A stretch of DNA of 64,000 nucleotides from Porphyromonadaceae bacterium (GCA_007280905.1 QYQM01000038.1:744-64743), one strand, 5' to 3'. Counted from the first letter of the stretch, positions 1 to 8,971 are shown. Made by a program: numbers and translations. The notes: generated by a model from the letters alone, not told the origin.

Positions 1-1144
1 CGGAATATTGTCCGCCCATTTGCCCGGAAAACAGGTACTCCCCGGGTTTGTAGAGCCGATAATATTCCCGCAAAATCTCCAGCAGCCGGACCGAAAGGAG
101 GGTGATGCGGTCTTTTTTTCCTTTGCCACCCCTGATATGGATCATCATTCGCTTGGAGTCAATATCTGTGGGTTTCAGGTTCAGGGCTTCGCCGATTCTT
201 AAACCGGCTGAATAGCATGTCATTATCAGACATTTATGCTTAAGGTTGGAGATGTTCTCAATAATCATTTTTACTTCAGGTTCACTCAACACGGAAGGGA
301 GCAACTTCTCCTTTCGGGGACGCTCAATGTAATAAATGCGACGTGGCCCTCTTAATACCTTCTCATAATAGAATTTTATTGCATTTATGGCCTGATTCTG
401 ATAGGAGGTTGATACCTGGCGTTCCTCAACCAGGTAGAGCAAATAGGCCTGGATCTCTTCCTGCGAAATTTCATTGATGTCTTTGGTGCTGTAGTAGTTA
501 ATGAACTCGCAAAAGCAATCCTTGTAGGTCTTGATCGTATTGCTGCTATACCTGAGTACCGTGAGCTTATCCAGATAGCAGGCCGGTGCCTGACGATAGT
601 TTTCCACCTCTTCCGGTTTCAGCCGGGGTTTTCGGTTCAGATGCCGGAGGTCCTCAAGGTATCGGTATTTCCACCCGCACTCCTCGCAAAAATTGACCAG
701 ATTTGACAAAGCTACTTCCGTGTGGGCAATCGTCCACCACAGGTTTTCTTTATCCCAGGCGTAGAGCGGAAGTGTTTTGATCAGTTTAACCAGTTCCTTA
801 TCATACCTGAAGATCAACCGGACTCGTCCGTTATGGTATTTTACTACCAGCAGAGTATTAGCTTCCGCCGCCGGGGCCGATGAAACAATTGCCGGTTTAG
901 CCAACGGCTCTTGAACATTACTCTCAGTAAGCCTTTCCCCAAAGTAATTGCGCATCATCGTCAGGTTTTCCTCCTTTCGGCTGATTACCCAGCAGAAAGC
1001 TGCTGAATCCCACCGGGCATAATGAAGGGTCCGCAGAAAACGGATATCCTGTTCGTCTTTCTTCATTTTCAACAGAATAAACCGCTCTGTGATTGTCAAT
1101 TTAACCGGTTCTTTAGGGATACCATTCGCTTTTTGATTTTCCAT
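1..1144 (-). CDS. tyrosine recombinase/integrase (XerC/D-like), C-terminus cut by window edge
   Basis: Not in the ORF track because it is open at the edge. The ATG is the reverse complement of 1142-1144. My hand translation is stop-free to position 1: MENQKANGIPKEP...SNTIKTYKDCFCEFINYY...STSYQNQAINAIKFYYEKV...LRIGEALNLKPTDIDSKRMMIHIRGGKGKKDRITLLS... It shows a SAM-like N-domain plus the R...GKGxKxR box typical of tyrosine recombinases. Confidence 0.85.
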   Translation of the reverse strand, partial: MENQKANGIPKEPVKLTITERFILLKMKKDEQDIRFLRTLHYARWDSAAFCWVISRKEENLTMMRNYFGERLTESNVQEPLAKPAIVSSAPAAEANTLLVVKYHNGRVRLIFRYDKELVKLIKTLPLYAWDKENLWWTIAHTEVALSNLVNFCEECGWKYRYLEDLRHLNRKPRLKPEEVENYRQAPACYLDKLTVLRYSSNTIKTYKDCFCEFINYYSTKDINEISQEEIQAYLLYLVEERQVSTSYQNQAINAIKFYYEKVLRGPRRIYYIERPRKEKLLPSVLSEPEVKMIIENISNLKHKCLIMTCYSAGLRIGEALNLKPTDIDSKRMMIHIRGGKGKKDRITLLSVRLLEILREYYRLYKPGEYLFSGQMGGQYS

Positions 1145-1866
1145 ATACATCTATTTTAATTTCAGAATGGCTATACGAATGATTTCGGTTTTGCCTCCAT
1201 TATCAGATATAGATGCATTTTTAGCTGCTAATTGGAAAAATCGAGTGCGAATATTCTTGTAACTTGTCCACACCGATGCGTTAGTGAATTGGTAATGATG
1301 AAGATTGAATCGGTTATTAAAAAAACGATGATTTGTGGCAGAAGGGTAGAATAAGTGGCCATCGACCGGCCGGAGCGAGTCGCCTGAGCCCGCGTAGTGT
1401 TGTGAGGTGATGTGATGAATAGTGAAACGCGGTGATTTACCTCAATGCTATACTATCCTTAAACCGAGTTTTTACAATCATCTCAAGCCATCATATTCCT
1501 CATCCGTTATTGCAAGTCCTATTGTAACCTTTTCCAAGGACCAGCTAATTTCGATTGAGCTTCGTTTTAAATAACTGGATTGAAACCCTCATGATGCGAG
1601 TGGTGAGGTTCGATCCCTTTGAAAAAGAACCACCGGACAATGGTGAAGCAGGAAAGGTAGACCGGAAGGTTCAGCGAGAATCAATATAGGTTTCAATTTG
1701 ATGGGTTAATTGGAACACGTAAATATGATATAACCCAATCTCATTCGGAACGGTTTCCCCATTAACCTAAATATCAAGACTCTATAATTACGTCTTTTAA
1801 CGTATTTATGGCGGAAGTTTGTAAAACGGGGAATTAGTGCGTGATGTTTACAATCGGTAGCCAGGT

Positions 1867-3831
1867 TCAGAATAGTAAATCCTCATCAAACCCCGCCAAA
1901 TCATCCAGAAATGAGCTATTGCCACCGGTATCGACAAACTGAAAATCCGTCAGTTCTTTCGGCAGATCGGTCAGGAAATAGGTCTCATGACCCGAAGTGG
2001 AGTTTATTCCTGATCCTCCCATCAAAATCGTTTTACTGGGTTGTTCAGCCCTTGTGATAAATAATTCATTCTGGGCACGGGTCAGGGCTACATAGAGAAC
2101 CCGTCTTTCTTCCTCTATCTCATCATCATTGCCGATCGACCGCTGGTGCGGATAAACTCCGGGAATAGCCTGGGGAATCATGCAGATCGGGGCCTCTGTC
2201 CCCTTGGCACTATGGATGGTAATAATGGTTACAATATCTTCAACAATATCGGATTCGTGTACCTCCTTATTATAAATCGGATCAAGGGTGTAGGTTTCGA
2301 GAAACTCGGCCAACCGGGAGAACCTCTCCGATAGCCGCTGAAGCATTTCCAAGTCCTTTGACCGGGATGGCCAATGGTCATATTTATTGGATAACAGGGG
2401 ATCAAGAAAATTCGTGGCTGCTGCTATCGCTTTCTTGGGATTACGAATATGTTGCCGGACTTCCTCTACCGCAAGGGGAATTTTGGGTTCCCATTTGAAG
2501 AAATTTCGGAGTGATTCGTGGGATTCCTTCTCATCCCTTGCCTGTATAATGATTTCAATGGCCTTTGACGAAGTTACGTCACCAACCTTTGGCCATAGCT
2601 TCAAATACCGCATCCATGCCAGCTCGTCCTTATAGTTGATCGCTGCCCTTAACAGGCTGAACAGGTCGCGCACATGGGCCGATTGCAACAAAGCGGTTCC
2701 ACCGATGAACTGATAGGGAATTTTCATCTCCACAAAAACGGCTTCGATCCTTCGGGCGAGGTAGGCAGTGCGAACCAGAATCATGAAATCGGAGTATTTG
2801 CTTCCTTCTTCGTGTCTCCGGAGAATCTCATCGCCATACCATTTGGCCTCCTCAAAAACATTCTGAAAGTCGATCAAATTGGGTTTTAAACCGGGGCCAC
2901 GGATTGCAGTCAGGTTTCGGTTGTAGGCAAGGGGTGACAATTTCAGGAGCCAGTTTGCCAGATCGAGAATTTCCTGGGTACTACGGTAATTCTGTTCCAA
3001 TTGAATGTTCTCGGAATTTGGCATCCGCTCACTAAAGGAGTGGACATTCCGGAAGTCTGCCCCACGGAAGCCATAGATGCTTTGCGCATCATCACCGACA
3101 CAGAACAGTTTTGCAGGGTTAGCCAGTTTCTCCAGTATCCCCCATTGCAGCGGGTTAGTGTCCTGCATCTCATCGACCAGGATGTGGGAGAAAAGCCCCT
3201 GCAATTTCTTTTGCAGGGCTGGATTCTTGCTGATTATATCCAGGAAAATATACAGAATATCATCAAAATCAATGTAGTTACGTACCTTTTTCCGATCCTC
3301 GTAAGCCTCAAAAATCCTAAGAATGGTACTGATCACCTCGTCATTGTACTCGGTGAACTTGATCAGATAGTCATGCGGAACCAGGCAGGTATTGCGGGCG
3401 TAAGAATAGAGATCAAGCAATTCTTTTGACTTGGGGAAGTGCTTCTTTTCAGTCTTTTTTATCGCTGTACCCCTCAGCAGGCCCATCAAACCGCTTTGGT
3501 CATCCCGGTCAATAACCGTAAAACTCTCAATACCGAACGTTTTAGGAATAGTCTTCATAATGTCCAAACAAAACCGGTGAAATGTTCCGGCAAAAATCCC
3601 TTTGGCCAGGTCACCCATCTCCAATTCCAACCGGTGGGTCATTTCAGCAGCGGCCCGGCGGGTGAAGGTCAGCAGGACTATTCGTTTCCCCGGAACATTA
3701 TTCTTCAGCAGAAAAATCGTCCTACCGATTATGGTACGGGTTTTACCGGTTCCGGCACCTGCCAAAACAAGGAGATGATCCCGCGGGCTGGTATATTCAG
3801 CGGCCTTTTTCTGTTGGGGGTTAAGTTCCAT
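1867..3831 (-). CDS. UvrD/Rep/PcrA-family superfamily-1 DNA helicase
   Basis: 654 aa. Motifs present: Walker A AGAGTGKT, TFTRRAA, DEMQDTN, GDDAQSIYGFRGA, QNYRS, TIHSAKGTE, VALTRA. The ATG is the reverse complement of 3829-3831. Confidence 0.9.
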   Translation of the reverse strand: MELNPQQKKAAEYTSPRDHLLVLAGAGTGKTRTIIGRTIFLLKNNVPGKRIVLLTFTRRAAAEMTHRLELEMGDLAKGIFAGTFHRFCLDIMKTIPKTFGIESFTVIDRDDQSGLMGLLRGTAIKKTEKKHFPKSKELLDLYSYARNTCLVPHDYLIKFTEYNDEVISTILRIFEAYEDRKKVRNYIDFDDILYIFLDIISKNPALQKKLQGLFSHILVDEMQDTNPLQWGILEKLANPAKLFCVGDDAQSIYGFRGADFRNVHSFSERMPNSENIQLEQNYRSTQEILDLANWLLKLSPLAYNRNLTAIRGPGLKPNLIDFQNVFEEAKWYGDEILRRHEEGSKYSDFMILVRTAYLARRIEAVFVEMKIPYQFIGGTALLQSAHVRDLFSLLRAAINYKDELAWMRYLKLWPKVGDVTSSKAIEIIIQARDEKESHESLRNFFKWEPKIPLAVEEVRQHIRNPKKAIAAATNFLDPLLSNKYDHWPSRSKDLEMLQRLSERFSRLAEFLETYTLDPIYNKEVHESDIVEDIVTIITIHSAKGTEAPICMIPQAIPGVYPHQRSIGNDDEIEEERRVLYVALTRAQNELFITRAEQPSKTILMGGSGINSTSGHETYFLTDLPKELTDFQFVDTGGNSSFLDDLAGFDEDLLF

Positions 3832-4095
3832 ATTTTTGATAGTAGAAGATAAATATACTCAATCGCTGAGTTGCAGTCAACTGATTTCAGTAGCAAGGTC
3901 ATTGGATTGCGCAAAGACATCAGGTTATATTCAGCCAATGACAGGTACCTCACCACTTTCAGCCCGCATAAAAATATTTTCTCTTCAACTGACGAGCAAC
4001 TTCCTTCGATTGTTTTGTAAGGCAGTTCATAGATACCGTAAGGCATACAGTCTTTTGTCCCAAACCGGCACAACCTCAGTCAAGAATTTAAAACA

Positions 4096-4386
4096 TTAGA
4101 GGTTGAATTTTTGCTGAGGTGTCCTTGCCTGGACCATTTTTGATAATTTATGGTTGGGCAACATGTTTCTCAGCTTATAGATTTCGCTCTCAGGAAAGTG
4201 CGAGAATGTGAATACTTCCTTGTTATTTAGGTAGACCTTGAATACCTTCTTGATGCGCCAAAGGCTATGAACATTCTGATTAGCATAATGGTGGGTGTAG
4301 TTGTTATATATACCCACTTCTTCTTGGTCGAGTAAGTTAATCTGCACTTCAAACTTTCGAATGGTTTTTGGAATTGTCTTCATCAT
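4096..4386 (-). CDS. hypothetical protein (96 aa)
   Basis: Tracked ORF on the same strand as its neighbours, starting with tandem ATGs. I recognise no motif, so coding status rests on position and length only. Confidence 0.4.
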   Translation of the reverse strand: MMKTIPKTIRKFEVQINLLDQEEVGIYNNYTHHYANQNVHSLWRIKKVFKVYLNNKEVFTFSHFPESEIYKLRNMLPNHKLSKMVQARTPQQKFNL

Positions 4387-4469
4387 AATGATTTTAAAAT
4401 TGAACTCACAATTTACTACTCAATTTTATCTTTTTCAAAGGTTTAGCTATGCAGTCAAGGGTTTCACAA

Positions 4470-5036
4470 TCAATCCCGGTCAATATAACCCTCAATCGGC
4501 TTAAATGACCCATTCTGCTGATCCACTCCCTGTCTCTTGCGTGCCTCCTTCAGAATGTACCCACTCCTTCTGCGGGGTCTGGAATCCTTACTACCAGCTG
4601 GACGACCAAGTTTCGTTCCCTTATCCTTAGTTCTACGAAGTCCTTCAATGGTGCGATCCCGGATCAGTTCCCGTTCAAATTCAGCAAAGGCAGCAAGAAT
4701 CTGGAACTGGAGTTTACCGGATGCGGTCGTGAAATCGAGATTATCCGTTAGCGAAATGAAACCTATCCCTTTTTTGGTCAGTTCCGTAATGTCAAGAATC
4801 AGTTCCATGGATGATCTAGCGAACCGGTCGAGCTTATACACGATTATTGACTCATATTCCCCTGCCCTCGCTTTTTCCAGCATCAGTTGTTTCACTGGTC
4901 GGGTTTTCCGTGTCGATTCCGTTTCTTGATATAGGTGGTATTCCAACGCCTTGTTCTTGGCGTATTCAACCAGCCTTATTTCCTGATTATCTGTTGTTTG
5001 CTTATCGGTCGAGACTCTAATGTAAAGTGCTACCAC
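4470..5036 (-). CDS. small serine recombinase (resolvase/invertase catalytic domain) with basic tail instead of an obvious HTH
   Basis: N-terminal LYIRVSTDKQ catalytic-serine box, VYKLDRFARS and LAAFAEFERELIRDRT motifs. The start is GTG (reverse complement of 5034-5036) and overlaps the upstream gene by 20 nt. Confidence 0.88.
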   Translation of the reverse strand: MVALYIRVSTDKQTTDNQEIRLVEYAKNKALEYHLYQETESTRKTRPVKQLMLEKARAGEYESIIVYKLDRFARSSMELILDITELTKKGIGFISLTDNLDFTTASGKLQFQILAAFAEFERELIRDRTIEGLRRTKDKGTKLGRPAGSKDSRPRRRSGYILKEARKRQGVDQQNGSFKPIEGYIDRD

Positions 5037-5418
5037 TATCTTGAATTATTAATTTGCCATACTGATTTCTATTCTCTCGGATAGGCTGGTATTCGATTCG
5101 CTCCACTCGTTCAAAAACATAGCCATCAGGCGATTCTCTAATAACCCAAACCGGAATCCCAAGTTTAAGTGCATGGAGAACCTCGGAATACAACCCCATC
5201 GTGATGTAACCTTCGTGTTCCAAAACGACAACCAGATCAGACCAGCCAACGATATTCAAGTACTTCTTGAATTGCTCAAGACGACCGATGTCGTTGTTTG
5301 GGCAGAGAACCCTATATTTTCCCCGAAGCAGCTTCAGGATGCGGGTTTCCGTATCAGTATCAAAGGAATGTGTGGAATGAGCGAAGAAAGCCCGTGGTTT
5401 TTCACTTGTCGTTGTCAT
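5017..5418 (-). CDS. hypothetical small Rossmannoid protein, nucleoside 2-deoxyribosyltransferase-like / TIR-like (tentative)
   Basis: 133 aa. It begins with a beta-strand start AFFAHS..D and ends with VVVLEHEGYITMGLYSEVLHALKLGIPVWVI. That C-terminal stretch resembles the D/E...G..E.G.A...GkPV layout of NDT-like folds. Both of its ends overlap neighbouring genes. Confidence 0.55.
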   Translation of the reverse strand: MTTTSEKPRAFFAHSTHSFDTDTETRILKLLRGKYRVLCPNNDIGRLEQFKKYLNIVGWSDLVVVLEHEGYITMGLYSEVLHALKLGIPVWVIRESPDGYVFERVERIEYQPIRENRNQYGKLIIQDSGSTLH

Positions 5419-5551
5419 AGGTCTTTTGAATGTCTTTGATTATGACTAAAAGTACAGGTATGATGATCAGAGCCGCCGCCACAAACTCGAAAAAATTGCT
5501 ATTGCAGGGCTTACTGCTAATTGTTGGAATATCGCTGTGAAATGCCTCCAT
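5402..5551 (-). CDS. 49-aa micro-ORF with one predicted transmembrane helix (below the track's apparent 60-aa floor)
   Basis: Hand-translated as MEAFHSDIPTISSKPCNSNFFEFVAAALIIIPVLLVIIKDIQKTYDNDK*. Its ATG (5549-5551) lies 1 nt after the ATP-grasp stop codon. Its stop (5402-5404) overlaps the next gene by 17 nt. Confidence 0.45.
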   Translation of the reverse strand: MEAFHSDIPTISSKPCNSNFFEFVAAALIIIPVLLVIIKDIQKTYDNDK

Positions 5552-5552
5552 C

Positions 5553-6710
5553 TTATTGTATTTTAAAGGTTTGGGACATCACGGCGATCAGATCAGTCAG
5601 TGAGTTCAGCTTTCGCTGCTGCTTTTGACCGCTCCGGTCAGTGTAATCTAACATTTCACCTTTGTGCTGGGTAAGAATTTCTTTCAGGTAATCATCGTTG
5701 ACAATCGGGTCAATGATCTTACTGGTTTTCTTAGCCTCATCAGTCAAGGATTGAAGCAGTTGCGTGGTGTCCCTGCGCTCCTGTTGCAACTTATTCCGGT
5801 CATTGCCATGTTGAGCAAAATCCTGTTCAGTAAATGCTACAATAGCTTTACTGACGCTGATTCCGGTTACCTTTTCAATGTGAAAACCAGCGTTACCATT
5901 GACTTCGATCAGAAAGGGTTGCCCGTCTTTCGCCCTCAAAAAATCAACACCAGCAATGGGCAAACCGACAGCTTGTGCAGCCATAAGGCACATATATTCC
6001 TCTTCCTTACTAATGTCAGCTTTAATGCCCTGACCGCCTTGGCTGATATTCGCCCTAAAATCCCCTCGTGCTGCGACACGTTTGTAGGAAGCGACCGCCT
6101 TCCCCCCGACAACGAAAACACGAAAGTCAGTGCCCGATGCCTCGATGTACTCCTGAACAAGCACAGGAATATTAGCCTTACTGAAGCTATCCAATGTTGA
6201 ACGCACGGCTCCCATCGAATCCAAATAGGCAACACCTTTGCCCTGCGAGCCATGAAGCTGTTTAACCACCACTGGCATGCCGCCAATTTTTTCAATTAAC
6301 TGATCGACCGAATCGCCACCGGAGTAAAGCAAAGTCCTAGGAGTCCGTATTCCAAATTGGCTGCATTTCTGAATAGTTTCAAACTTGTCTGAAGCCGTAA
6401 GTAGACCACTAGTCGGTATCGGACAAAAAATACCGACATTACTATGCAAATGGTCAAGAATTGCACAACCATATCTCAGGTTATCACCTAATCTTGGATA
6501 TACCGTATCGTAATCACTCGCAATAACCCGGTTGATTACTCCCTTCTCTTCACGATAAACACGGTCAAAACCAGACTGATGACTCGAAACGAAAAGGTAA
6601 ATATCGCACGGACGTATTATTGCAACTGTATGCTTCCGGTTTTCAAAAGCACGAACCAGTGAACCTGTTGCGTTGGAATCTGTTGATTCGGTTAACAAAA
6701 GCACGTTCAT
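5553..6710 (-). CDS. RimK-family ATP-grasp ligase (alpha-L-glutamate-ligase-like) with about 90-aa charged C-terminal extension
   Basis: 385 aa. Motifs PVVVKQLHGSQGKGV, QEYIEASGTDFRVFVVGG, RGDFRANISQGG and GVDFLRAKDGQPFLIEVNGNAGF match the RimK ATP-grasp layout. An ATGA overlap links it to the upstream gene. Confidence 0.88.
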   Translation of the reverse strand: MNVLLLTESTDSNATGSLVRAFENRKHTVAIIRPCDIYLFVSSHQSGFDRVYREEKGVINRVIASDYDTVYPRLGDNLRYGCAILDHLHSNVGIFCPIPTSGLLTASDKFETIQKCSQFGIRTPRTLLYSGGDSVDQLIEKIGGMPVVVKQLHGSQGKGVAYLDSMGAVRSTLDSFSKANIPVLVQEYIEASGTDFRVFVVGGKAVASYKRVAARGDFRANISQGGQGIKADISKEEEYMCLMAAQAVGLPIAGVDFLRAKDGQPFLIEVNGNAGFHIEKVTGISVSKAIVAFTEQDFAQHGNDRNKLQQERRDTTQLLQSLTDEAKKTSKIIDPIVNDDYLKEILTQHKGEMLDYTDRSGQKQQRKLNSLTDLIAVMSQTFKIQ

Positions 6711-7102
6711 GGGTTGGATGGATTAAAGGTTGCTTCGTCCAAAACCGGGCGATTGCGAAACCGGATTACTTTGTACCGGTCGCCTGAAAGTGGTTTTAGT
6801 CCATATTCAAAGACACCCATCACCTTGTCTGCTAGCTGTATGCCTGTATGGGTGAAAAACATGAAATCGTAACCAGCACCGATAAGGAAATCCCGGCTGA
6901 CGGTGTGCTCCGCTTTATCACCGAGTGTACGATTAAGGATGTCACGGTTTCTTGTTAGCACCTTCCAATAATCCGATAGGGTTCGCCTACGTTCGGTCGC
7001 TTTGCGGTTGTTGTACTTTATCTGATTCTCCCTGCTGGAAAATCGCTGCGTCTCACTTTTCTTGGTAAACGCTTGTCCTGAAAAAGGGTCTTTGCCTGTC
7101 AT
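6707..7102 (-). CDS. hypothetical protein with basic N-terminal region (131 aa from ATG; 138 aa if TTG at 7123)
   Basis: The tracked ORF 6707..7123 starts on TTG, and the first ATG is the reverse complement of 7100-7102. The K/R-rich segment NNRKATERRRT suggests nucleic-acid binding. It is the first gene of the overlapping cassette. Confidence 0.55.
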   Translation of the reverse strand: MTGKDPFSGQAFTKKSETQRFSSRENQIKYNNRKATERRRTLSDYWKVLTRNRDILNRTLGDKAEHTVSRDFLIGAGYDFMFFTHTGIQLADKVMGVFEYGLKPLSGDRYKVIRFRNRPVLDEATFNPSNP

Positions 7103-7178
7103 GATACATTCAATTTCAGGCAAAGATAATACAACAATAAGCCATTATCAAGAGGTAATTATCTGATTTTCTTATGGT

Positions 7179-7208
7179 TAACGCATATTAGCGCATATTG
7201 ACGCAAGG
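7179..7208 (-). promoter_or_regulatory. iteron-like 10-bp-phased repeats (ACGCATATTA GCGCATATTG ACGCAAGG) upstream of the cassette
   Basis: The exact 14-mer GCATATTAGCGCAT (7183-7196) recurs at 8712-8725, upstream of the integrase gene. TAACGCA and ACGCAAG are also shared between the two sites. Confidence 0.4.
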
Positions 7209-7359: not shown

Positions 7360-8628
7360 TCAGTTTGGATTAACGTTCCACAGGGCTTTCATCGGTTCGG
7401 GGTCAACATTGTTAGTCCCGTCCAGTACCAGATCGAGTTTTTTCATTTCAGCGGTTAGCCTTGATGTATTCATCCGGGCATAATGCTGGGTCATTGGGAT
7501 AGTGCTATGACCGAGTATTTGGGACAACACCTCTATCGGCATATTATTCGCCAAGGCGACAGTTGTAGCGAAGGTATGGCGGGCCAGGTGCGAGGAAATT
7601 TCCTTGGTTATCCCACACAGGTCGCCCACTTCTTTCAGGTAGGCATTCATCTTTTGATTCGACAGTACCGGAAATATCCGGTTCAGTTTCCGGCATGGGT
7701 GTTTTTGGTATTTTTCCACGAGCGATTGGGCCGTTTTCAGCAGCGGTATCGAAAGTTGCCGTTTTGTTTTCCTTCTCTTCTTCGATACTTGCCACGATCC
7801 ATCAGCCAATTTTATCAGGTGTCCAGGCGTAAGTTCCTTTACGTCCGAATAGGCCAATCCGGTATAACAGCAGAAGATGAACACATCAGCCACCTGTTGC
7901 AGCCGTTCAACCTTAAACGTACAATCAGTGATCAGGTTCAGCTCCTCAATCGTCAGGTATCCCCTATCCACCGGCTTCAGGCTCATCTTGATCTTATCAA
8001 ACGGGTTTCGGTTGATCCATTCGTTGTTTTCAGCAAACTGAATAAATCCTTTCAGGGTACGCATGGTTTTTACCGCTGTATTCGGCTGCTGATTCTTAAC
8101 GGCCCGAAGGAAGTGATCAAATCCAGTCAATACCTCATAAGTAAATCCGCTCATGGCAATGTCTTTCTCTTTATATTCCTGTTTGAGAAACGATTGCAGA
8201 TGAGTATAACACATCCGGTACTTCTGGATGGTGGGTTTGGTGATTTCCTTTCCGACCAGTTCAGCCTTTTTGTTAATGAAGCCATCAAGTTCCTGTAAAA
8301 AATACTTCTTGTCCGGATCAGCACCGTTGTACCGGGCTTTAATCGAAGCAGCAGTAACATCCCTGTCGATGTGTTCGAGTTCTTTCTGAACCTCATAAAC
8401 CCTATTCTGGCACTGCTGCAGGTAATCGTTCAACTGGGTTGCCTTAACGCTTCGGCTGGTTGATCGTCCTTTAGCCTGATCCCACTCTTTCGGGCGGATC
8501 ATTCGCTGAATGGCAATCTCAGCACGGATGCCGTTCACCGTTACCCTCATGAAGATGGGTACTTCCCCGTTAGCGTCCACTTTCTGACGCTTCAGGTAGA
8601 ACATGACTTTGAATGTTGCTCGTTTCAT
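7360..8628 (-). CDS. tyrosine-type site-specific integrase with N-terminal Arm DNA-binding domain (IntDOT/NBU-like)
   Basis: 422 aa. It starts MKRATFKVMFYLKRQKVDANGEVPIFMRVTVNG, typical of the Bacteroidota Arm domain. The C-terminus HLARHTFATT...LGHSTIPMTQHYAR carries the catalytic HxxR...H..Y box. Confidence 0.92.
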   Translation of the reverse strand: MKRATFKVMFYLKRQKVDANGEVPIFMRVTVNGIRAEIAIQRMIRPKEWDQAKGRSTSRSVKATQLNDYLQQCQNRVYEVQKELEHIDRDVTAASIKARYNGADPDKKYFLQELDGFINKKAELVGKEITKPTIQKYRMCYTHLQSFLKQEYKEKDIAMSGFTYEVLTGFDHFLRAVKNQQPNTAVKTMRTLKGFIQFAENNEWINRNPFDKIKMSLKPVDRGYLTIEELNLITDCTFKVERLQQVADVFIFCCYTGLAYSDVKELTPGHLIKLADGSWQVSKKRRKTKRQLSIPLLKTAQSLVEKYQKHPCRKLNRIFPVLSNQKMNAYLKEVGDLCGITKEISSHLARHTFATTVALANNMPIEVLSQILGHSTIPMTQHYARMNTSRLTAEMKKLDLVLDGTNNVDPEPMKALWNVNPN

Positions 8629-8697: not shown

Positions 8698-8730
8698 TAA
8701 CGCAAGTTTCAGCATATTAGCGCATTGTGG
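8698..8730 (-). promoter_or_regulatory. second copy of the GCATATTAGCGCAT / TAACGCAAG motif, between the integrase start and tRNA-Ser
   Basis: The 14-mer at 8712-8725 is identical to 7183-7196. It lies 84-97 nt upstream of the integrase ATG and about 160 bp from the tRNA 3' end. Confidence 0.4.
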
Positions 8731-8884
8731 TACAAATCGAGACCTGTTGATAACTTTCCGCTGAGGTCTCTATTTGGACACTCCTATCGTGCGTTTCTGT
8801 GCCGGTCTGTGCGCTATCAACAAAAGGAAAAGCCGGAATTTGGTGTGATATTCAGGCTGGTGCGCTTCTGTGCTGTTTGGGTTG

Positions 8885-8971
<87 letters not shown>

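Follow-up and report, generated by a model that had tools for sequence, protein, structure and literature searches.

A Candidate Accessory Operon Pairing a RimK-Clade Ligase with a Membrane Micro-Protein on Small Bacteroidota Integrative Elements

The stretch of DNA analyzed here, 64 kb from a Porphyromonadaceae bacterium (QYQM01000038.1:744-64743; referred to below as the window), carries on its minus strand a compact cassette of five genes, encoding a basic protein, a RimK-clade ATP-grasp amino-acid ligase, a single-pass membrane micro-protein, an NDT/TIR-like Rossmannoid protein, and a small serine recombinase. The explanation favored here—tentatively, with confidence that stops a little short of an even balance—is that the cassette is an accessory operon of small tRNA-targeting Bacteroidota integrative elements, acting as an element-borne module that would add amino-acid tails to proteins or peptides for conflict or host manipulation. 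As judged from the comparison of loci, the specific core of this operon is the ligase, with a private domain of about 90 residues, together with the micro-protein, the two being set between a basic protein of the element backbone and the serine recombinase.

Organization and Recurrence of the Cassette

All five minus-strand open reading frames (ORFs) that the original prediction had placed in this region were recovered by ORF calling: the basic-protein gene (6707-7123 from a TTG codon, giving 138 amino acids (aa), or 6707-7102 from an ATG codon, giving 131 aa), the ligase gene (5553-6710, 385 aa), the micro-protein gene (5402-5551, 49 aa), the gene for the NDT/TIR-like protein (5017-5418, 133 aa), and the recombinase gene (4470-5036, 188 aa, with a GTG start). 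The four junctions were also read in the sequence as predicted—that is, an ATGA overlap at 6707-6710, a gap of 1 nucleotide (nt) at 5552, and overlaps of 17 nt (5402-5418) and 20 nt (5017-5036), with the last leading into the GTG start of the recombinase, whose N-terminus, MVALYIRVSTDKQ, is typical of serine recombinases. Pairwise ratios of nonsynonymous to synonymous substitution rates (dN/dS), calculated against the orthologous cassettes at loci L005 and L001 and with dS near saturation, were 0.04-0.36 across all five window genes, and the five are, by this measure, all under purifying selection. No second copy of any cassette gene was found in the window.

The arrangement was found to recur in 11 independent loci, namely the window, L001, L005, L004, L006, L008, L122, L124, L123, L125, and the partial L042. 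A basic-protein gene lies upstream of the ligase gene in all 11 (in L042, on a partial contig), and a micro-protein gene and a small serine recombinase gene lie downstream of it in all 10 that extend that far, with ligase identity to the window falling to 33-40% among the cassette loci. In each of these 10, the micro-protein gene begins 1-13 nt past the ligase stop codon. Members of the window clade (L001-L003 and L005; 59-77% identity) contain genes for an integrase, the basic protein, the ligase, a 51-aa transmembrane protein, an NDT-like protein of 124-131 aa, and a 188-aa recombinase. The full five-gene cassette is also present at L125:301-2929, where the identities are 45% for the basic protein, 40% for the ligase, 43% for the NDT-like protein, and 71.5% for the recombinase, and where gene overlaps are retained at this 40% protein identity; the value for the recombinase would reflect either a much stronger constraint or a separate exchange. 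In L004 (60%), the L006/L008/L122/L124 clade (36%), and L123 (33%), the series comprises the basic protein, a 68-70-aa transmembrane protein, the ligase, a 43-54-aa transmembrane protein, and the recombinase, and there is no NDT-like gene. The neighborhoods of ATP-grasp homologs retaining the C-terminal extension of the ligase had been proposed as the place to look for conservation of the cassette, and the same frame was found there at every readable locus. L038-L040 contain a decayed copy, in which the basic protein is accompanied by three ligase fragments, with fusion to a fragment of UvrD.

Comparison of L006 with L008 revealed a 2.6-kb block, opening at the start of the basic gene and closing at the end of the recombinase gene, that is 97.8% identical between the two, with the integrases, replication genes, and cargo being unrelated. 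Judged from this alignment, the basic-to-recombinase block moves between elements as a unit. The view that the cassette is a single, tightly packed, and conserved unit is borne out by gene order and tight junctions repeated in the 11 loci and by the movement of the entire block among elements that are otherwise unrelated. These same data bear on a rather doubtful alternative—that the cassette is not one system, with the basic protein and recombinase being backbone, and the ligase/micro-protein pair and the NDT-like gene being independent cargo packed together by genome compaction. Such an arrangement would fit the absence of an ATP-grasp gene beside the basic protein in 24 of the 26 genome loci of the basic-protein family, the presence of basic protein and recombinase without a ligase in L035 and L036 (in L035 as a frame of basic protein, TM70, and recombinase that also lacks the micro-protein), the occupation of the recombinase slot by three unrelated types, and the optional nature of the NDT-like gene. 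It is harder to reconcile with the exchange, across unrelated backbones, of a whole block that is 97.8% identical and delimited by gene ends, with the overlaps kept at 40% protein identity, and with a serine recombinase at every locus reaching past the ligase.

The RimK-Clade Ligase

Judged against the family cut-offs of Pfam and NCBIfam, the ligase matches Pfam RimK (PF08443; 1e-42, 146 bits, cut-off 21), the pre-ATP-grasp N domain Rimk_N (PF18030; 29.8 bits, cut-off 26.4, residues 1-95), and NCBIfam rimK_fam (TIGR00768; 179.8 bits, cut-off 143.4, 6.8e-53), and its nearest PDB matches are the RimK proteins of Pseudomonas and Escherichia coli (6e-46 to 2e-40). A set of 20 family members shows no variation at the ATP-grasp motif residues K150, G154/S155/G157, R211, R219, N221, D256, E269, and N271, which align to RimK of P. 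aeruginosa, with a Lys in the β-strand preceding the Gly-rich loop and with D...E-x-N present. By these sequence criteria, the protein is a RimK-clade enzyme with its active-site motifs intact.

The ligase also has a C-terminal extension (5556-5825, minus strand; residues 296-385, 90 aa), in which a charged stretch of about 55 residues leads into a conserved motif at the end of the protein, (L/I)-x-Y-x-D ... D-(L/I)-x-x-(I/V)-M-x-x-x-F. The extension is kept, and conserved in alignment, throughout the cassette-family subclades, and has no significant Pfam or PDB sequence match. Canonical metagenomic RimKs align only to residues 1 to about 300 of the ligase, at the same core identity of 33-37%; a metagenome scan with the ligase alignment yielded almost exclusively such canonical RimKs and one true family member, L042. 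Thus, the predicted RimK-type ATP-grasp protein with about 90 charged extra residues is confirmed by the Pfam and NCBIfam matches, and the extension is both conserved and specific to the family.

Like RimK and RimABK of E. coli and Pseudomonas, the cassette contains a ligase with a pre-ATP-grasp N domain, a RimK-type core, and intact catalytic motifs, and Pseudomonas RimK also acts with operon partners (PMC10092738). Unlike the RimK/RimA/RimB systems as described in that work, the cassette has the C-terminal domain of about 90 aa and a constant transmembrane micro-protein; unlike RimABK, it resides on integrative elements and has no rimA, rimB, or rpsF neighbor. The original prediction had recognized neither S6 nor a known RimK partner among the neighbors, in agreement with this comparison and with the absence of an S6 gene (rpsF) from the window. 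These features make it improbable that the cassette is an ordinary captured rimK, by which the element would supply polyglutamylation of S6 (RpsF) and retune host translation. The core does resemble RimK of E. coli and Pseudomonas, and comparable phage genes are annotated as S6 modifiers, but the ligase scored only 163 bits against the S6-ligase equivalog NF007764, far under its cut-off of 331, so that S6 is not implied as the substrate, and the extra domain, the constant micro-protein, and the lack of rpsF in the window point the same way.

A mobile RimK-like ligase is also found in the cyanophages S-RIM8, S-CAM8, and S-RIM12, whose "S6 glutaminyl transferase" genes belong to PHROG 2599, and the ligase core matches the PHROGs class "moron, AMG and host takeover." The phage genes differ in that they align only to the ATP-grasp core (residues ~98-295), with neither an N domain nor a C-terminal domain, and without the neighbors seen in the cassette. 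As in the amino-group-carrier systems LysX/LysW and ArgX, where the partner is a small carrier protein, a RimK-family ligase stands beside a small protein, and the similarity to LysX reaches 6e-30; unlike in LysX/LysW, however, the LysX score is far under the cut-off, the neighbors have no LysW-like acidic C-terminal tail, and biosynthetic genes are absent.

A shorter relative of the ligase, of 339 aa and without the conserved C-terminal motif, was found at L010:7583-9221, in a VapE-primase element by tRNA-Leu and tRNA-Gly. Its flanking genes encode a 68-aa protein and a non-membrane 62-aa protein ending in SEEPL, and it has neither the basic protein nor a recombinase beside it. L010 may represent a different partner arrangement for a ligase relative.

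The Membrane Micro-Protein

The 49-aa product contains one 19-residue hydrophobic stretch with a Kyte-Doolittle mean of 2.9. In alignment, the micro-protein family (43-54 aa) displays a conserved polar N-terminus (S/T-x-P-x-I/L), one transmembrane helix making up the bulk of the protein, and a charged tail; the N-terminus is S/T-rich around an invariant Pro, with acidic residues nearby in most members, at positions that are not conserved. With a dN/dS of 0.12-0.36, the micro-ORF is under purifying selection and is therefore taken to be a real gene, as had been predicted, its conserved alignment agreeing with this. A relationship to TM72, a small protein of the element backbone described below, was considered and rejected: hhalign gave a probability of 24%, over the charged tail only.

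Graspetide (microviridin-type) clusters likewise set an ATP-grasp gene beside a small conserved ORF, and this raises the alternative of a RiPP-like pathway (RiPPs being peptides made on the ribosome and modified after translation), with the micro-protein as precursor peptide and its Ser/Thr- and Asp/Glu-containing N-terminal region undergoing graspetide-like cross-linking, or extension, through the ATP-grasp enzyme. The position of the conserved small ORF directly after the ATP-grasp gene and the S/T-rich stretch around the invariant Pro, with its nearby acidic residues in most members, are as such a pathway would have them. Even so, it is judged quite unlikely. The ligase is of another clade than the graspetide enzymes, with a RimK score of 6.8e-53 to be compared with values of 1.8e-9 for the maturase model TIGR04187 and of about 1e-4 to 3e-5 for TIGR04184 and TIGR04185 (range for the three, 1.8e-9 to 1e-4 and 21-37 bits, all far under cut-offs of 350-475). 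The peptide is a membrane protein, mainly a transmembrane helix, in which conservation is concentrated at the very N-terminus and no leader/core layout is evident, and no tailoring or export genes accompany it, neither a protease nor an exporter nor a GNAT having been found near the cassette loci.

The Basic, NDT/TIR-Like, and Recombinase Proteins

The first protein of the cassette is basic, as predicted (pI 10.0). Its ORF is present as claimed, but the TTG start at 7123 gives way to the ATG at 7102 (131 aa) as the likelier one, because the homologs all begin M-x-x-x-D-(P/L)-(L/F)-(S/T)-G at the equivalent Met. The dN/dS of the gene is ~0.18-0.20. An AlphaFold2 (AF2) model, with a mean predicted local distance difference test score (pLDDT) of 81.7, shows at the N-terminus a β-hairpin without cysteines, then a basic helix of 37 residues and a small β domain; Foldseek found no PDB fold match (best E-value 0.5), Pfam, PHROGs, and PADLOC gave no match, and a PDB sequence-profile search gave nothing significant. 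The family was found in 26 genome loci, all from Bacteroidota and mainly from Flavobacteriales, and in 149 protein clusters, with no relatives among the viral contigs or plasmids searched. The expectation that the basic protein would be a partner specific to the ligase is contradicted by the 24 loci without an ATP-grasp gene, and the gene instead belongs to the backbone of a large Bacteroidota integrative-element family. The possibility that cassette products belong to ordinary housekeeping families of phages or integrative and conjugative elements thus holds in part, in that this protein represents an element-backbone family. An apparent truncation of the basic gene in L122, hinting at a crossover within the gene, proved to be a gene-calling artefact.

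The 133-aa protein has only seven close relatives among 5.8 billion clustered proteins, and 214 remote ones in a representative library. Its AF2 model (pLDDT 77.6, pTM 0.75) is an α/β Rossmannoid with C-terminal β-hairpins. Foldseek matches in the PDB were weak but consistent, comprising TIR domains, NDT, and DNPH1, with E-values of 2.5e-3 to 3e-2 and TM-scores of 0.42-0.53; within these ranges, the TIR matches (SPARTA, SARM1, and TIR-STING) gave TM-scores of 0.42-0.53 at E-values of 4e-3 to 3e-2, and NDT (6evs and 8pqr) and DNPH1 gave weak matches with TM-scores of 0.48-0.53 at E-values of ~1e-2. Against BFVD, unnamed phage proteins were matched with an E-value of 2.9e-6 and a TM-score of 0.71, together with NDT, TIR, DUF7768, and SLOG. 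Of 60 relatives, at least 90% retain each of H14, S15, E24, G75, and E79. E79 lies in a G-x-x-x-E-x-x-x-A…P-V motif resembling the NDT/DNPH1 catalytic site, and its position (G-x-Y-x-E-x-x-x-A) is occupied by Gln in P0127. The protein belongs to no Pfam family, with PF05014 giving no match to it and a weak match (E 0.006) to just 2 of the 60 relatives; PDB sequence-profile searches with the family found nothing significant, and no relatives of the close family were found in viral contigs. The label "NDT/TIR-like Rossmannoid" is accordingly upheld at the level of the fold only, by AF2 and Foldseek. With the NDT/DNPH1/TIR superfamily, the protein probably shares this fold, and it has a Gly…Glu…Ala…Pro-Val motif where the catalytic Glu of NDT/DNPH1 would lie; unlike NDT, it has a C-terminal β-hairpin extension, an invariant H-S, and Glu24. 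The gene is a part of the cassette in the window, as described originally, but not a constant member, being an optional add-on present in 4 lineages and absent from 7 of the 11.

The recombinase contains the Pfam Resolvase domain (PF00239; 1.7e-36, residues 2-141) as its sole Pfam domain, has "DNA invertase" as its top PHROGs match (4e-43), and has dN/dS values of 0.04-0.08. It ends in a 47-aa basic tail (pI 10.6) rich in Gly, Pro, and polar residues, which is conserved in L005, L001, L036, and L125; the L123 copy ends at a contig edge before the tail. No Pfam helix-turn-helix (HTH) family was matched at E ≤ 0.1, a search of limited sensitivity given that the tail of the L006 type, HTH-like by eye, was also without a Pfam HTH match; on this basis, the description of the protein as HTH-less, with a Resolvase catalytic domain only, stands. 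Like the small serine recombinases Hin, Gin, and Mpi, it has the catalytic domain, the Ser nucleophile in the context Y-x-R-V-S-T-x-x-Q, and a length of ~190 aa; unlike them, it carries the conserved basic tail, with no recognizable HTH, in its last 47 residues. Linkage of a recombinase to the cassette is constant, as predicted, but linkage of a single type is not, since three different types fill the slot, of which one has a Pfam HTH_7 match and another is HTH-like by eye only.

Compared with L008:5833-9426, L122 and L124 carry the block flipped on the same type of backbone, with the outer flank (L008 9764-9826 corresponding to L122 61-1) in the same orientation. The pattern suggests an in-place inversion of a ~3.5-kb segment containing the recombinase gene, as would be expected of an invertible segment with its own invertase. 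The module in L008 lies between the arms of an imperfect inverted repeat of 22 nt (core CCAAATTTGG); this repeat was considered as a recombination site and is not claimed as such, not being conserved in L006, L122, and L124. A search for inverted repeats around the cassette, made in the window, L001, and L005, gave nothing beyond AT-rich chance matches.

The Integrative Elements and Their Cargo Slot

The backbone of the elements was derived by clustering neighboring genes and annotating representatives. It was found to run in the order of a tyrosine integrase, a ~300-aa protein, one or more HTH_17 proteins, a primase, the basic protein, the ~70-aa TM72, often a ~83-aa transmembrane protein, and a variable region, with the primase being of the DnaG-Zn/Toprim type, the DUF3987 type, or the AAA_25 with DUF6371 type. 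In the sister elements examined, the variable region contains Type I, Type IIG (Eco57I/MmeI-like), or Type ISP restriction-modification genes, and it is this cargo slot that the ligase, the micro-protein, the optional NDT-like gene, and the recombinase occupy. The elements of the window and L005 are a minimal version, consisting of integrase and cassette, with no primase in that of the window.

The loci L013-L037 and L041 represent widespread and apparently unannotated small integrative elements of Bacteroidota, several short versions of which are inserted beside mnmE. P4-like satellites with defense hotspots and tycheposons resemble the present elements in having a tyrosine integrase sited at a tRNA gene or a housekeeping gene, an excisionase-like gene of the HTH_17 type, a primase/helicase, and variable restriction-modification cargo. 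They differ in the phylum of their hosts, and the backbone proteins of the present elements (the basic protein and TM72) are unrelated to theirs.

The nature of the slot lends some weight to another reading, unlikely though deserving attention, in which the cassette is a dedicated anti-phage or abortive-infection system: upon infection, either the ligase would act on a protein of the phage or the host, or growth would be stopped by the membrane micro-protein and the NDT/TIR-like hydrolase as effectors. Besides the restriction-modification systems held in this slot by sister elements, the reading can point to toxin-antitoxin pairs, GmrSD, and AbiGi among neighbors at related loci, to the recurrence of TIR/NDT-like folds in immunity proteins among the structural matches, and to the UvrD/GajB-like helicase adjoining the cassette. 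Set against these are the lack of a PADLOC match for the five proteins, the absence of the NDT-like gene from most lineages, the absence of any recognized sensor-type domain in the cassette proteins, and the generic character of the UvrD matches to GajB, with the case amounting to guilt by association.

The Surroundings of the Cassette in the Window

The original prediction had placed the cassette in a tRNA-linked island, and a tRNA-Ser(cga) gene (8884-8971, minus strand; ARAGORN, Rfam tRNA 49 bits), marking the integration side of the island, and a gene for a 422-aa tyrosine integrase of Bacteroidota type (7360-8628, minus strand; Pfam Arm-DNA-bind_5, Phage_int_SAM_5, and Phage_integrase) were indeed found directly upstream. 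L005 has the same tRNA, an integrase ortholog in the same position, and the same cassette; its similarity to the window ends at the recombinase stop codon, the L005 flank beyond being without a counterpart in the window. In a search for the att site, no direct repeat of the tRNA-Ser 3′ end of at least 11 nt was found in the window or in L005.

A 14-nt motif, ATGCGCTAATATGC, is located upstream of the basic gene (7183-7196, minus strand), with an exact copy, in direct orientation, upstream of the integrase gene (8712-8725). Two matches, with two mismatches allowed, were reached in 4 of 100 shuffles, and L001, L002, and L012 likewise have a 12-mer of the motif ahead of the basic gene. The motif is possibly an operator or an arm-type site. 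Scans of the window for sigma-70 promoters and terminators gave results at chance level, with the promoter tool not covering Bacteroidota promoters.

On the other side of the cassette, a lineage-specific basic ORF of 96 aa and uncertain status, without a family match or homolog, lies between the recombinase and helicase genes (4096-4386, minus strand), and the stretch 3947-4474 of the window is missing from the related islands L001 and L005. The helicase gene (1867-3831, minus strand) encodes a UvrD/PcrA-like superfamily 1 protein of 654 aa (Pfam UvrD-helicase and UvrD_C), which matches the GajB models of PADLOC in a generic manner. It is intact in the window, internally deleted in L001 (L001:3570-5167), and represented in the L038-L040 remnant by a fragment (L038:9393-10570) fused to ATP-grasp fragments, between host genes. 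Because it has decayed in L001 and is present in this remnant flanked by host genes, the helicase is probably part of the island in the window lineage, traveling and decaying with it. Further on, a second tyrosine recombinase ORF (2-1150, minus strand; Phage_int_SAM_4 and Phage_integrase) runs off the window start, so that mobile-element genes form a patch at the left end of the window.

Proposed Function and Implications

As an element-borne tailing module, the cassette would work through its RimK-like ligase, which would use ATP to turn a carboxylate into an acyl-phosphate and would then attach glutamate, or a different amino acid, to a protein or peptide, probably in repeated rounds. Targeting or regulation would fall to the private C-terminal domain and the micro-protein, which could hold the ligase at the membrane. 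Modification of a host or invader protein would then give the element an advantage, whether by host manipulation, exclusion, or defense. The recombinase would serve DNA maintenance of the module, through resolution or inversion, rather than its chemistry.

Several results weigh against this proposal. The cassette products include no candidate acceptor, none having a conserved acidic C-terminus of the S6/LysW kind, and the score against the S6-ligase equivalog is low. Searching PADLOC-DB v2.0.0 left the five proteins unmatched, save for a chance-level E-value of 0.017 for the 49-aa peptide, and a literature search on ATP-grasp/RimK proteins in defense, conflict, and integrative elements yielded no description of such a cassette. 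The link to defense or conflict would come from the position in the cargo slot and from the precedent of phage RimK-like "host takeover" genes. Furthermore, the term "five-gene system" overstates the functional core, because the basic protein mostly occurs without the ligase—in all but 2 of its 26 genome loci, as described above—and the NDT-like gene is optional.

The searches also bear on novelty. No named system was originally known to combine these genes; PADLOC gave no system match for the cassette, with only the neighboring helicase of the island matching the generic GajB models, only the ligase core and the recombinase among the cassette proteins were matched in PHROGs, and the literature searched contained no match, all as that statement would have it. 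The roles in defense, addiction, or RiPP formation that were put forward with it would draw their support from the slot where sister elements carry restriction-modification genes. A more elaborate version, in which a RimK-like ligase, kept at the membrane through its private domain and the micro-protein, polyglutamylates or otherwise tails an invader or host protein, the NDT/TIR-like protein is an add-on effector that hydrolyzes nucleotides, and the module is switched by inversion (phase-variable) or moved as a portable unit by its own recombinase, is considered doubtful.

RimK-type tailing is known mainly as a chromosomal means of retuning the ribosome, and the present family differs from it in its private domain, its pairing with a micro-protein, and the mobility of the block. 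Three protein families without current annotation are defined by this analysis, namely those of the basic backbone protein, the C-terminal domain of the ligase, and the NDT-like 133-aa protein. If the target of the ligase is a host or phage protein, amino-acid tailing by ATP-grasp enzymes would join the conflict mechanisms of mobile elements, and a function would be provided for a widespread, unannotated family of Bacteroidota integrative elements.

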